Origin: Vicinamibacterales bacterium
GTDB lineage: Bacteria > Acidobacteriota > Vicinamibacteria > Vicinamibacterales > SCN-69-37
Direction: 5' to 3'
NCBI GenBank assembly: GCA_030827135.1
Contig: JAURFE010000002.1
Coordinates: forward strand, 146,715 to 210,714
Length of the DNA: 64,000 nt
Part shown: positions 18,425 through 26,720 of the stretch, piece after piece
Position numbering within the stretch: position 1 is the stretch's first letter
How the letters are laid out: every line of letters begins with the position of its first letter
Notes under the pieces: generated by a model
Databases searched by the model: none
What the model saw: only the letters and a program-made list of their open reading frames with translations
Told to the model about the DNA's origin: nothing
Position numbers and translations under genes: made by a program

Positions 18425-18555
18425 TTATTGAGGATTGAGGATTGGCAATTGTTCAATTGCGGATTGAGGGATTCAATTCCACAATCAGGCAATCAATCCT
18501 CAATCCCCCAATTGAACAATGGCCAATCCTCCCTCCTCAATCCTCAATCCTCAAT
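18425..18555. repeat. Gene-less inverted-arm element of ATTGAGG/CCTCAAT heptamers (empty relative of the 24701-25379 cassette)
   Basis: Starts ttattgaggattgaggattggcaattgttcaattg and ends caattgaacaatggccaatcct...cctcaatcctcaat; followed by GC hairpin gcagcgcc/ggcgctgc (18556-18574). Confidence 0.88.
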
Positions 18556-18577
18556 GCAGCGCCGCAGGCGCTGCTTC

Positions 18578-18678: not shown

Positions 18679-18716
18679 TTATTGAGGGATTGAGGATTGG
18701 GGATTGAGGATTGGGG
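18679..18716. repeat. Half element: left arm only of the ATTGAGG repeat family
   Basis: ttattgagggattgaggattggggattgaggattgggg directly after hairpin ctggcc-ttc-ggccag, downstream of the tRNA. Confidence 0.8.
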
Positions 18717-22859: not shown

Positions 22860-24620
22860 CTATGCCCTTCGCGGTTGCATCGTGACTTCGGCCCGCAGGC
22901 TCTTATCGAGTTCGGTGCGGAAGAAGGACTCCTTCATGCCGCCGTCGATGATCTGCCAGGGCAGGAAGGGGTCGGCTTCCTTGTTGCGGTAGAGGTACGC
23001 GTCAGCGTCAAGGCCCGACTCGGCCACTGCGGCGCGCCAGTTGCCGCCATTGGCTTCGGCACGTTCGATGACATCGGAGACGCGGCGGTCACCCAGGGAG
23101 AGCAGCCCCTGATAATACGAATGCCGCTCGGACTTGATGTTGAAGTAGACGTTGTCGATGCCGGCCACGAGTTGCCGCAACCGCTTCGACTTCTGGTCAA
23201 TGGTCGCCGTGTCGGTCATCGGCATCCACTGATAGGTCGTGCCCGGCTTCGGCACCAGCGGGTTGACGGAGGCCACGATACGCCCGACAGCGCCGCGCGC
23301 CCTGGCGTACACCATCATGCGGTCGCGCATGGCGACCGTGAGATCACGGATTTCGACGAGGTCGTCATCGGTCTCGGTCGGAATCCCGATCATGTAGTAG
23401 AGCTTCAGGTTCTCAAACCCGGCGGCGAACACCATGTCCGTGCGTTTGAGGATTTCCTCGTTGGTCACGGTCTTGTTGATGACCCGGCGCAGGCGATCGG
23501 ATCCGGTTTCTGGTGCGATGGTGATCGACCGTTCACCGCTCTCACGCAGCAGGCGCAACACGGGTTCGGTCAGGTCGTCCATGCGCAGTGAGGCGGGACT
23601 GATGCCGTAGCCCATGCGAACCAGGCCCTCGAGAATCGGCACGATGTCGGGGTGATCACAGAGGGCGATCGACACCAGACCGGTGCGAGTCGCAAAGGGC
23701 CTGGCGGCCTCGGCAAGTTCGAGGATGCGCGCAGTGTCGAACGGACGCACGGGCAGATAGTTGTAGCCGGCCCAGCAGAAGCGGCACATGTTGGCGCAGC
23801 CGCGCACCACTTCGATGAGGAACCGCGCGCCGAACTCCGTGTCGGGCGTGAAGATTCGTGTGCAGGGAGGATCCACATGGTCCGTCGCCCGGATGGCGGC
23901 CTTCCGGACCGTCGCCGGCGCCCGCGTGCCCGCCTTCGGCGTAATCGCTGCGACGCGCCCAGGACCGTCGTAGGTGACGTCGTACAAACTCGGGATGTAG
24001 AACCCGCGTTCCTGGGTGAGCCGGTCGAGCAGGTCGTCCCTGTCCGAGGCGCTGTGCCACGCCTCGACGAGGGCCGGCACCAGCATCTCCCCTTCCCCTG
24101 CCGCGATGACATCGGCAAAGGGCGCGAGCGGTTCGGGATTCACGAATGTCACGGCGCCACCGACGATGATCAGCGGGTCACGATGGTGCCGGTCGGACGC
24201 CCGCGCTTTGAGCCCTGCCATGCGCAGCATGGTGAGGACGTTGGTGTAGTCCCACTCGAAGGAGACCGAGAACGCGAAGACATCGAAGTCCGAGACCGGC
24301 GTCTGCGATTCGATGGTGACGAGGGGCTGCCGGCGGACACGGTCGTCCGCGAGGTCCTGTCGCCCGGGCAGGAACACCCGCTCACACACCACCCGGTCGT
24401 CCGCGTTCAGCAGCTGATAGACCGTCTGCAACCCGAGGTTCGACATCCCGACGAAGTACGTATTCGGAAACGCGAGCGCCACCCGCATCCGGCCCCCATG
24501 GGGTTTCCGGATGACGCCGACTTCCTTGGCGAGCGTCTCGAGCGCCTCGGCGCGCCGATCCCCGGCAGCACCGGCGGACGCTTTGCCGCCGTATCGACGT
24601 GGGGGGGGACGTTTGGGCAT
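22860..24620 (-). CDS. Radical SAM protein with B12-binding-like N-domain
   Basis: ALAFPNTYFVGMSNLG, IEVVRGCANMCRFC (CxxxCxxC), TIAPETGSDRLR, PLVPKPGT. Confidence 0.88.
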   Translation of the reverse strand: MPKRPPPRRYGGKASAGAAGDRRAEALETLAKEVGVIRKPHGGRMRVALAFPNTYFVGMSNLGLQTVYQLLNADDRVVCERVFLPGRQDLADDRVRRQPLVTIESQTPVSDFDVFAFSVSFEWDYTNVLTMLRMAGLKARASDRHHRDPLIIVGGAVTFVNPEPLAPFADVIAAGEGEMLVPALVEAWHSASDRDDLLDRLTQERGFYIPSLYDVTYDGPGRVAAITPKAGTRAPATVRKAAIRATDHVDPPCTRIFTPDTEFGARFLIEVVRGCANMCRFCWAGYNYLPVRPFDTARILELAEAARPFATRTGLVSIALCDHPDIVPILEGLVRMGYGISPASLRMDDLTEPVLRLLRESGERSITIAPETGSDRLRRVINKTVTNEEILKRTDMVFAAGFENLKLYYMIGIPTETDDDLVEIRDLTVAMRDRMMVYARARGAVGRIVASVNPLVPKPGTTYQWMPMTDTATIDQKSKRLRQLVAGIDNVYFNIKSERHSYYQGLLSLGDRRVSDVIERAEANGGNWRAAVAESGLDADAYLYRNKEADPFLPWQIIDGGMKESFFRTELDKSLRAEVTMQPRRA

Positions 24621-24700
24621 GGTGGGGACCCGGTCGTCCTCGCGCCGCGGCTCAGACGGAAGCGCAGCGAGAGGCGGTGGGTGTTTCGATTGTACCTGCG

Positions 24701-25379
24701 TTATTGAGGATTGAGGATCGAGGATTGAGGATTGGCAATTGCGCAGTCAATTCTGCAATTGAGGATTGCGAGATTGATTGAGGGATTGACCGATTGGGGG
24801 ATTGGGGGATTGGGGGATTGAGGGATTGACGATGACGCTGCCGAACAACACAACTTCGCCGGAAGTTCTGAAGGACCGCCTGGAGAAGTTCGCCTTGGGC
24901 GTACTGCAGCTGACCGCACCGATGTTGCGCGAACTCGAAACTCGGGATATTGCGCTTCAACTCAGACGATCTTCGTCAAGCGCCTACTCAAATTACGGTT
25001 CCGCATGCGTCGCCAGGTCGCACGCGGATTTCACATCCAAAGTCGGTATTGCCTACGAAGAAGCCGACGAAAGCCGTCGGTGGTTGCGCTTTCTCAAAAA
25101 CGCGAACTTGGCGAATGACGACGACACCGCCCCTCTGCTCGCGGAATCTCTGGAACTGCGTGCGATACTCTCGGCGTCACACCTTACGGCGAAGCGGAAC
25201 CGTCACACCAGACGAGCCCGCTAGTCCGCTGGTCCCACAATCCCACAATCCCACAATCCCGCAATCCCGCAATCCATCAATCCGTCAATCCGTCAATCCG
25301 TCAATCAATCCCACAATCAGCAATTGCAGGATTGGCAGCCCAATTGCCAATCCTCAATCCTCCATCCTCAATCCTCAAT
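24701..25379. mobile_element. Putative cassette: four-helix-bundle gene enclosed by long inverted arms of 7/8-nt repeats
   Basis: Left arm 24701-24831 (ATTGAGG then GATTGNNN units) and right arm 25233-25379 (CAATC-core octamers then CCTCAAT) are reverse complements, 54/59 identical over the outer part. The structure is seen directly; mobility is inferred. Confidence 0.6.
24832..25224 (+). CDS. Four-helix-bundle protein (23S rRNA intervening-sequence protein / Avd-like family)
   Basis: LKDRLEKFA...IALQLRRSSSSAYSNYGSACVARSHADFTSKVGIAYEEADESRRWL...ESLELRAIL matches the QL.RS..S..AN..E...S..DF..K..IA..E..E...WL family pattern. Confidence 0.88.
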   Translation: MTLPNNTTSPEVLKDRLEKFALGVLQLTAPMLRELETRDIALQLRRSSSSAYSNYGSACVARSHADFTSKVGIAYEEADESRRWLRFLKNANLANDDDTAPLLAESLELRAILSASHLTAKRNRHTRRAR

Positions 25380-25406
25380 GCCGGCGGCAGCACCGTCGCC
25401 GCCGGC

Positions 25407-26720
25407 CTATCCTTCCTGCCGCCGGAGAAACGCCGGCACATCCAGCGCCGACGCGTCCTCGTCGAGCGCGTCGAGTGAGAGGTCACCGAGGCTGGCGGCG
25501 GTGGCGTCAACGGGCGGCGCGGCGGGCGCCGGCGCCGGAGCAAACGCCGGCAGATCGAGGCCGGGACGCCTCGAGACGGCCAGGGCCGGTCGGAGCGCGC
25601 TGAGCGGCGATCCGTTCACGACCTTGCGTTCCTCCTCGAGGATGCGGTGCGCACTGTACGCCGTCAGGTCGATCGGCGTGGGGATCGACGACTGCGCCAT
25701 TGGCGCGACGGCGTTGCGCGCCTTGTCAAATCCGGTCGCGATGACCGTGATTTTGATCTGGCCTTCCATCTTCGGATCCACGACGGCCCCGAAGATGATG
25801 TTCGCGTCTTCGTGCGCCGCGTTGTAGATGATTTCCGACGCCGCGCTGACCTCGGCCAGCGTCAGGTCCGGTCCGCCCGTGATGTTGATGATCACGCCGC
25901 GGGCGCCGTCCACCTTGGCGTCCTCGAGCAGCGGGCTGGACACCGCCGCCGTGGCCGCAGCCGTCGCGCGCCCCTCACCCGACGCGATGCCGGTGCCCAT
26001 GATGGCGATGCCCATGCGCGACATGATGGTCTTCACGTCGGCAAAGTCGAGGTTGATGATGCCGGGCACCAGAATCAGATCCGAAATGCCCTGAATCGCC
26101 TGCCGCAGCACGTCGTCGGCCGTGAGAAACGCGTCGGACATGCTTGTGTCCCGGCCGACGGTCGTCAGCAGACGCTCGTTGGGGATCGTGATCATCGTGT
26201 CGACGGCGTCCTGCAGTTCCTTCAGCCCACGCTCGGCCTGGGTGGCGCGGCGACGCCCCTCGAACTTGAAGGGCTTGGTCACGACGGCAATCGTCAGCGC
26301 GCCAATCTGATTGGCGAGGCTGGCAATCACCGGCGCGGCGCCAGTGCCCGTGCCGCCGCCGAGGCCTGTGGTCACGAACACCAAGTCGGCGCCCTGCAGC
26401 GTCTCGACAATCTTGTCCGTATCCTCAAGGGCGGCGTCCCGGCCGACGTTGGGATCGGCGCCGGCGCCGAGTCCCTTCGTCAACAGACGGCCCAGCTGGA
26501 TCTTCACCGGGGCCGGGCTGTTCGCCAGCGCCTGCTGGTCGGTGTTGGCGACGATGAACTCGACGCCGCTCAGACCGGCCTGGACCATGCGGTTCACGGC
26601 ATTGCTGCCGCCGCCGCCCACGCCAATCACCTTGATACGGGCGCCGGCACGCGCCTCGTCGTCGAGAAGGATTCTCAATTTGTCATCTCCCTGTTCCAGC
26701 AACGTCAGTGGATTCATCAA
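25407..26720 (-). CDS. ftsZ: Cell division protein FtsZ
   Basis: [35 protein letters not shown]-terminal [10 protein letters not shown]. Confidence 0.98.

Follow-up and report, generated by a model that had tools for sequence, protein, structure and literature searches.

A four-helix-bundle gene between ftsZ and a radical SAM gene as a candidate master copy of a dispersed hairpin repeat family

Described systems and the ftsZ-junction cassette

The rRNA intervening sequences (IVSs) of Coxiella burnetii and Leptospira hold an S23p open reading frame (ORF) in the loop of a stem made by terminal inverted repeats, and in Coxiella a variable number of tandem heptamers directly precedes the ORF; an old proposal has the IVS ORF serving mobility (PMC4990558). 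In the present work a stretch of 64,000 nucleotides (nt) from a Vicinamibacterales bacterium (assembly GCA_030827135.1, contig JAURFE010000002.1, positions 146,715 to 210,714; hereafter the window) was analyzed for a gene encoding a four-helix-bundle (4HB) protein of the same family, which is boxed by long inverted arms of short tandem repeats. As in rRNA IVSs, a stem encloses the S23p-type ORF, as judged by both the inverted repeats and the predicted fold. While IVSs interrupt 23S or 16S rRNA genes, this cassette occupies the gap between ftsZ and a radical SAM gene. In place of the 28-bp stem of Coxiella it has arms of 126 nt built from tandem 7/8-nt units, and dozens of further copies of this arm family are dispersed without a gene. 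On balance we lean towards reading the cassette as the gene-bearing 'master' copy of one such hairpin-forming repeat family, in a protein-repeat partnership resembling that of repetitive extragenic palindrome (REP) doublets forming hairpins (REPINs) and REP-associated tyrosine transposases (RAYTs).

REPIN-RAYT systems also combine a single-copy gene between its own inverted repeats with dispersed, mostly intergenic and gene-less inverted doublets, with several such pairs per genome, and in genomes that lack the gene their repeat populations are reduced (10.1101/2021.07.10.451892; PMC3337134). They differ from the system described here in that our protein, a helix bundle of 130 amino acids (aa), lacks the motifs of HUH or tyrosine transposases, the arms consist of tandem arrays and not of one palindrome, and the RAYT-like genes of this genome have separate REPs. 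Intergenic tandem heptamers are likewise found in Xanthomonas (GGGAATC) and Nostoc, G-rich in both, in Beggiatoaceae (TAACTGA) and among the cyanobacterial short tandemly repeated repetitive (STRR) sequences. Of the Xanthomonas heptamers, 70-75 are found in close, convergent pairs that could fold into stem-loops (PMC4692102), and for such repeats the sources report lengths that vary between relatives and no known protein partner (PMC4692102; PMC4679880). These papers name no associated gene, whereas here every arm family found around a 4HB gene has a gene-bearing copy.

Avd, a nucleic-acid-associated accessory protein of diversity-generating retroelements (DGRs), has a homologous pentameric fold (PMC10053308). 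A DGR link was nevertheless rejected, as the genome, rated 100% complete, gave 0 matches to the reverse transcriptase profile PF00078, and the locus also differs from DGRs in having no template or variable repeats. The literature that was found deals with IVS biology, the homology of PF05635 and Avd, IVP ORFs in rRNA insertions of candidate phyla radiation (CPR) bacteria, and the partnerless heptamers of Xanthomonas, Nostoc and Beggiatoaceae. No link between the 4HB family and dispersed tandem-repeat hairpins was found in this search, outside which lay subscription journals and supplementary files.

Gene-repeat association in the genome, the genus and beyond

The genome that holds the window (G000; 3.24 Mb in 80 contigs, 65% G+C) contains six genes with a TIGR02436 match, and all six lie inside inverted arms of short tandem repeats, each with a different unit. 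For the ftsZ-junction cassette the unit is GATTGAGG (family F1), with ~49 BLAST arm matches elsewhere in the genome; the units of the remaining paralogs are GGTTCAT/GGTTCTG (~50-60 matches), GGCAATGR, of the GGCAATG family (~50-60), GGTCCAGG (~45), GAATCGG (~10) and GGTGGGC (4). When each cassette was compared with the genome by BLAST, the 4HB gene bodies were essentially single copy, and five of the six arm families had ~10 to 60 mostly gene-less copies elsewhere. An earlier note on this DNA had not seen that the arms represent a dispersed repeat family and that each paralog has a family of its own.

Tandem Repeats Finder (TRF) returned 404 arrays of period 7/8, and 341 of these sort into seven unit families. 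Close inverted array pairs number 59, with the G-rich arm 5' in 55 and the reverse order in 4, and the loop is at most 125 nt long in 52. The composite terminus of the cassette arms recurs in dozens of gene-less copies. With gene calls that are rough, the density of array loci was highest in gaps between convergent genes, at 0.50 per kb, and lowest where the neighbouring genes diverge, at 0.23 per kb. Of 295 array loci, 96 overlap called ORFs, partly through over-long ORF calls, and some arrays directly precede start codons. In all families the most frequent array size is 4-5 units, which fits a pentamer and also shared descent and the TRF threshold, and the peak was therefore kept out of the evidence. 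Several small contigs of this genome start with arrays, and in relatives several 4HB genes lie less than 100 nt from a contig end; the repeats probably cause many assembly breaks.

Other long-spaced array pairs were inspected for cargo; they surround ordinary genes, for SOD, L1/L10, DUF72, aldolase-like and secreted proteins, and were rejected as cassettes because they are separate arrays in neighbouring gaps. A GntR-family gene of 134 aa (G000:C2:28805-29436; L148, L155) stands between G-type and C-type GGTTCAT arms both here and in G014. The syntenic gene is armless in G011 and G016, and in G010 a complete hairpin lies upstream only; it was thus dismissed as cargo and taken to be a host gene.

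The genus was represented by 20 genomes, 19 of which held a total of 74 TIGR02436 matches; 60 of the 68 matches outside the genome of the window were analyzed, the 8 weakest being omitted. Flanks of 300 nt or more on each side were available for 57 4HB genes of the genus; of these, 46 had an arm-pairing score of at least 40 and 36 a score of at least 60, while none of 599 random positions reached 40. The tie between arms and 4HB genes that the earlier note had envisaged was therefore borne out in the genome (6/6) as well as in the genus (46/57). Arm units in the genus are highly diverse and include AGTGCGA, GTGCTCG, AGGGAAT, GGCGGAACT and a 10-mer. When 66 proteins were placed in a maximum-likelihood tree, clades corresponded to unit families, and neighbouring clades had similar units (GGTTCAT and GGTTCTG; AGTGCGA and GGTGCTC; GATTGAGG and GATGGGG). 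Protein clades and repeat units diverge together.

Array abundance appears to follow the cognate gene, cleanly for three families and with two exceptions in a fourth, in a set of related and mostly metagenome-assembled genomes (MAGs). Counts are matches to three tandem units per genome, with overlapping windows included. For AGTGCGA they were 141, 159 and 99 in the three genomes with an AGTGCGA-armed 4HB gene and at most 15 in the other 17, and for GGTTCAT 16, 9, 36 and 8 in the four genomes with such a gene, which are mutually closest kin, and 0 in the other 16. For ATTGAGG, the six genomes that carry the junction cassette gave 40-117 matches and the eleven with an observed, cassette-free junction 0-31, the genome of the window having 103 compared with 8 in its closest relative; this comparison leaves out G003 (91), G004 (1) and G031 (22), in which the junction was not seen. 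GGCAATGR counts were 105, 93, 74 and 66 in the four genomes with the cognate gene, 126 in G018, 59 in G015 and at most 33 in 14. Reversed-pattern controls for four units gave 0 matches in all 20 genomes.

The 4HB family was detected in 66 of 121 genomes of a phylum sample, a tally that includes G078 and G054, two genomes flagged as unpublished that enter into no other result given here. From this sample 29 loci in 29 genomes (G+C 29-70%) were examined; 14 of the 26 that could be scored reached at least 40, compared with 0/26 shifted controls, and most loci had 7-8-nt arrays on both sides. In a cross-phylum scan with a single protein as query, the layout was the same in 4/4 scoreable loci from Verrucomicrobiota and another Acidobacteriota. 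A cross-phylum code linking protein to unit was unsupported, as the AATCGG-unit paralog matches PDB entry 2RLD and not the Xanthomonas protein 2GSC.

Insertion, inversion and constraint at the locus

FtsZ was found in 28 of 30 relatives, with the radical SAM gene adjacent in 26 of the 28. Sixteen congeners have the junction; six of these carry a 4HB cassette and ten do not, and no 4HB gene was seen at the junction in 12/12 relatives from other families. In the closest relative (L008; FtsZ 96%) the spacer is gene-free and 117 nt long, with a GATGGAG-unit mini-hairpin at the insertion point. The junction protein of L009 is 88% identical and has the same outer arms with a shortened left arm. Protein identity is 58-67% in L015, L018, L020 and L022, where the outer arms are of the ATTGAGG type, and 57% in L010, where the arms are made of GATGGGG. 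Arm remnants without a gene persist in three of the ten cassette-free congeners (L019, L021 and L023), each retaining an outer arm end and L021 both. The GC-rich hairpin at the right edge of the cassette occurs only together with it, in this genome and in G014, and is missing at the empty site of L008. The cassette is a discrete insertion. These data agree with the proposal in the earlier note of a transposase-free cassette, which is seen here to be discrete and to come and go, and the empty sites it had suggested looking for between ftsZ and the radical SAM gene were found in 10 of 16 congeners, namely the closest relative and nine others.

At the gene-less F1 hairpin of the window (Table 1) the stop codon and the tRNA are ~5 nt apart in the empty sites of G011 and G010, and a GC hairpin similar to that of the cassette adjoins the gene-less copy at 18556-18575. 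Two orthologous spots, the ftsZ junction (in L008 and L010) and the site of the solitary array downstream of the tRNA, are held by arrays of different families in different genomes, which suggests shared insertion hot spots, fast turnover or array replacement. Arrays of different families also nest in one another. In L018, the ftsZ junction of G001, a long GGTCCAG array is nested in the ATTGAGG-type right arm and the junction measures 1127 nt.

Arms of such cassettes can recombine as DNA. One 4HB cassette found at a syntenic site in L059 (G001), L083 (G016) and L086 (G031) has the opposite orientation in L059 with respect to both flanking genes; the centre (351-1077) is collinear, both flanks are reversed, and the breakpoints fall within the ~100-nt arms. 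The earlier note had counted an invertible segment among its options, and this inversion of a related cassette between congeners speaks for it, but all seven junction cassettes share one orientation. Two Y1 transposase genes (RAYT-like, PF01797) are present in the genome, at G000:C11:1080581-1080919 (-) and G000:C51:143181-143504 (+). Both are flanked by their own classical REP palindromes and not by heptamer arrays, and a RAYT link was rejected on this ground. One of the REPs, with core CCAGCGCGCCCTAC, is often found next to GGTCCAGG arrays. Identity as a defence system was dropped, PADLOC anti-phage profiles giving 0 families for three of the six paralogs, and a known RNA family was dropped as well, with no Rfam match across 24300-25800.

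At the locus itself (Table 1), the 4HB ORF is antisense to both neighbouring genes. Positions 24703-24828 pair with 25254-25379 over 126 nt at 87% complementarity, and the arms are composed of ATTGAGG heptamers and GATTGNNG octamers. The left arm reaches the ATG and the right array begins 8 nt past the stop codon. Under one scoring scheme for the locus and for random positions, arm pairing scored 167 at the 4HB locus compared with a maximum of 32 at 599 random positions in the same genome. The outer left arm is the terminal block common to the dispersed F1 family, and the module order of the left spacer recurs in gene-less F1 copies. On both strands a stem of ~130 bp was predicted (z -14.8 on the plus and -12.9 on the minus strand), closing at the 4HB start codon. 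No sigma-70 promoter or intrinsic terminator was found within the arms. The earlier note had described the gene, its antisense position, the arm layout and the hairpin at the right end correctly, and the fold calculation confirmed the hairpin and predicted the long stem that it had expected; its account of arm composition and complementarity also held, with the left boundary corrected from 24701 to 24703, where the repeat really begins.

Table 1. Features of the cassette, its flanking genes and two further F1 loci in the window
Feature	Position	Strand	Remarks
4HB protein gene	24832-25224	+	130 aa; 23S rRNA IVS protein / Avd-like family
Outer left arm	24703-24734		ATTGAGG heptamers, 4.6 copies (TRF); ~49 BLAST matches elsewhere in genome
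Left spacer	24735-24775		GGCAATTG / CAATTG motifs; collinear with right-arm partner; within inverted pair I1
Inner left arm	24776-24831		GATTG-core octamers, 6.8 copies (TRF; array 24776-24829), up to ATG
Inner right arm	25233-25318		CAATC-core octamers, 10.2 copies (TRF; inverted pairs I1-I7), complementary to left inner array
Right spacer	25319-25347		CAATTG motifs
Outer right arm	25348-25379		CAATCCT heptamers, 4.6 copies (TRF)
GC-rich hairpin	25380-25406		Predicted by fold; adjoins right arm and complement of ftsZ stop codon
ftsZ, flanking host gene	25407-26720	-	Tubulin and FtsZ_C domains
B12-binding radical SAM gene, flanking host gene	22860-24620	-	Radical_SAM_N2 and Radical_SAM domains; TIGR03960-like match below cut-off
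Gene-less F1 hairpin	18427-18555		Between a gene's stop codon and tRNA-Met; present in G014, cleanly absent in G011 and G010
Solitary GATTGAGG array	18681-18715		Downstream of tRNA-Met; orthologous spot has GGTTCAT units in G011 and GATGGAGG units in G010

The 4HB protein matched PF05635 (E 2.5e-13; 50.6 bits, cut-off 33.8), its only Pfam match, and TIGR02436 (E 2.7e-17; 62.9 bits, cut-off 24). Both scores exceed the curated cut-offs, in agreement with the 23S_rRNA_IVP / TIGR02436 assignment of the earlier note. Its nearest solved homolog is 2RLD (E 1.6e-8); this entry and 2GSC, the closest solved homologs, were each deposited with five chains, and the Xanthomonas S23p protein is a homopentameric toroid (PMC4990558). 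By homology to S23p/Avd-type proteins the 4HB protein would therefore be a pentameric ring. Between the gene and its G014 ortholog dN/dS was 0.07 with 62% of synonymous sites differing, and among 4HB orthologs values of 0.02-0.19 were obtained for the 8 computable of 10 pairs; the 4HB proteins are under purifying selection. In the GGTTCAT-family paralog (G000:C11:1370906-1371166, L001) the profile match ends at position 89 of 109, the open frame continues into the downstream repeat array, and the C-terminus may be repeat-encoded.

Constraint was also apparent in the repeat units. The GATTG core is 93-100% conserved compared with 78-81% at the next three positions, the GGCAATG core is near-invariant compared with 54% at the last base, and GGTTC contrasts with 50-62% at the positions that follow; the unit layout is thus a near-invariant core and then 1-3 variable positions. 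The outer right arm is identical to that of the G014 ortholog at ~74 of 78 nt (~95%, counted from the alignment), set against the 62% of synonymous sites that differ. Arm mismatches in 36 cassettes gave no signature of RNA-pairing wobble, 71 being wobble-compatible on the sense and 63 on the antisense strand (p 0.55), and transversions (195) outnumbered transitions (134). With no wobble excess and many transversions, it is the unit core that appears to be preserved and not base pairing in a particular RNA.

Metatranscriptome data consisted of contigs, which neither make transcription certain nor show RNA ends. Contigs from two runs, belonging to different studies, span the full 4HB ORF and those of a third run part of it, at depths comparable to the ftsZ and radical SAM pieces. 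In one contig of run X17 the right inner array is expanded by a single TCCCACAA unit, at 25232, which indicates unit-number polymorphism in natural populations. Records of contig 'joints' and of the 'opposite strand' were rejected as evidence of processing, excision or inversion, as they fit other repeat copies and contigs stop inside the arms.

The proposed partnership and competing explanations

In the partnership that we favour, a ring-forming 4HB protein would recognize its own repeat unit by the invariant core of 5-7 nt, reading successive cores in phase every 7-8 nt on the G-rich arm, probably as single-stranded nucleic acid. The ring protein TRAP of Bacillus, which is wrapped by spaced (G/U)AG repeats, offers a model only, in that short invariant cores 2-3 variable bases apart are read by ring subunits; its fold is unrelated to the 4HB. 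By way of the host's replication or repair, recognition would maintain or multiply gene-less hairpins, in the manner of a single-copy RAYT and its REPINs, and this upkeep would need no recognizable nuclease or transposase. The outcome of binding could be copying, protection from loss, or regulation. As RNA, the arms would form a ~130-bp stem like those that RNase III cuts in rRNA IVSs. A reading of phased cores by the 4HB protein is suggested because the units are built as core plus spacer and diverge together with the protein, because their cores are conserved beyond synonymous saturation, and because arm mismatches lack a wobble signature. The REPIN-RAYT type of partnership is suggested because a single-copy gene sits in its own repeats, gene-less hairpins number in the dozens, several pairs occur per genome, and repeat populations tend to be smaller without the gene.

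A number of points weigh against this partnership. We infer the recognition step from sequence patterns, and a source-copy model, in which the master gives rise to gene-less copies by deletion, accounts for the counts with no action of the protein. The seventh unit family, TTCGGA, has no gene-bearing copy in the assembly, so that its master gene was not found. No target-site duplication was seen at the two comparisons of filled and empty sites (the junction and the gene-less copy). A GGCAATG-armed 4HB gene was not found in the array-rich G018 and G015, and only four of the six richest genomes have one; G016 has 31 ATTGAGG matches without a junction gene, and G003 has 91 with its junction unassembled. 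The GGTTCAT and AGTGCGA families may each represent one clade, in which case their counts are not independent, and the pattern counts include overlapping windows. Most of the genomes are fragmented MAGs, and genes flanked by repeats easily drop out of such assemblies.

Of the competing explanations, an IVS-like RNA element would have the arms serve only as a double-stranded stem cut by RNase III, with the unit sequence irrelevant; the cassette would be removed or insulated from an ftsZ read-through transcript and 4HB expression thereby controlled. The long stem predicted on both strands, its closure at the start codon and an RNase III gene in the genome accord with this, as does the case of Coxiella, in which tandem heptamers lie ahead of the S23p ORF and RNase III cuts the terminal stem that encloses this ORF in its loop (PMC4990558). 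We nevertheless consider it unlikely, given the absence of wobble bias and the excess of transversions among arm mismatches, the conservation of unit cores far past synonymous saturation and the much shortened left arm of the G014 ortholog, and because solitary arrays, and array counts that seem to depend on the gene, would go unexplained. The IVS picture fits the anatomy and may hold in addition to the partnership, leaving the unit-level constraints without explanation. A regulon, in which the 4HB protein controls transcription or translation sequence-specifically, with the arrays as operators spread by slippage and selection instead of mobility, likewise has a low probability in our estimation. 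It would account for the core-plus-spacer layout and the arrays directly before start codons, and it has precedents in the Beggiatoaceae heptamer arrays before start codons, proposed as regulator sites (PMC4679880), and in the Nostoc heptamer repeats, whose partner is given as still unidentified (10.1101/2022.06.06.494920). It is less easily reconciled with an array density that is highest between convergent and lowest between divergent genes (rough gene calls notwithstanding), with most arrays being paired hairpins of one fixed polarity (55 vs 4), with whole-block gain and loss of copies between close relatives, and with different families holding the same spot in different genomes.

That the 4HB gene is a passenger, riding in the loop of hairpins moved by an unrelated enzyme (a RAYT or one not yet known), is in our view improbable to a marked degree. 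The two Y1 transposase-like genes could supply such an enzyme, and the GntR gene too sits between GGTTCAT arms; however, both Y1 genes have classical REP palindromes of their own, the GntR gene belongs to the host by synteny and is armless in two relatives, and passenger status would yield neither one gene per family in six of six families nor protein clades that match units. Plain microsatellites, produced by slippage in place and lying beside the gene by chance, would explain the variation in unit number seen in the extra octamer of the X17 contig and in the differing arm lengths of orthologs. We attach almost no weight to this explanation, as the composite termini common to dozens of copies already contradict it, none of 599 random sites pairs so well, and reversed patterns were absent from all 20 genomes.

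A wider proposal, which we offer only tentatively, is that the S23p/IVP 4HB family may consist of sequence-specific rings, each reading a 5-7-nt core every 7-8 nt and driving both the spread and the maintenance of its own hairpins without a transposase, so that rRNA IVSs and the unexplained heptamer repeats of many phyla would be two faces of one protein-repeat replicator. The IVS-protein family has been without a function since the early 1990s, and the dispersed heptamers of Xanthomonas, cyanobacteria and Beggiatoaceae have so far been without a partner protein; the pairing described here links an orphan family to unexplained repeats. Six natural protein-repeat pairs in one 3.2-Mb genome make up a ready-made specificity matrix for binding assays, and they provide a testable parallel to REPIN-RAYT systems that lacks a recognizable enzyme. 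If recognition of the unit core is true, it would account for short-read assembly breaks at such sites, and the family would supply small proteins able to read short words of nucleic acid in phase.

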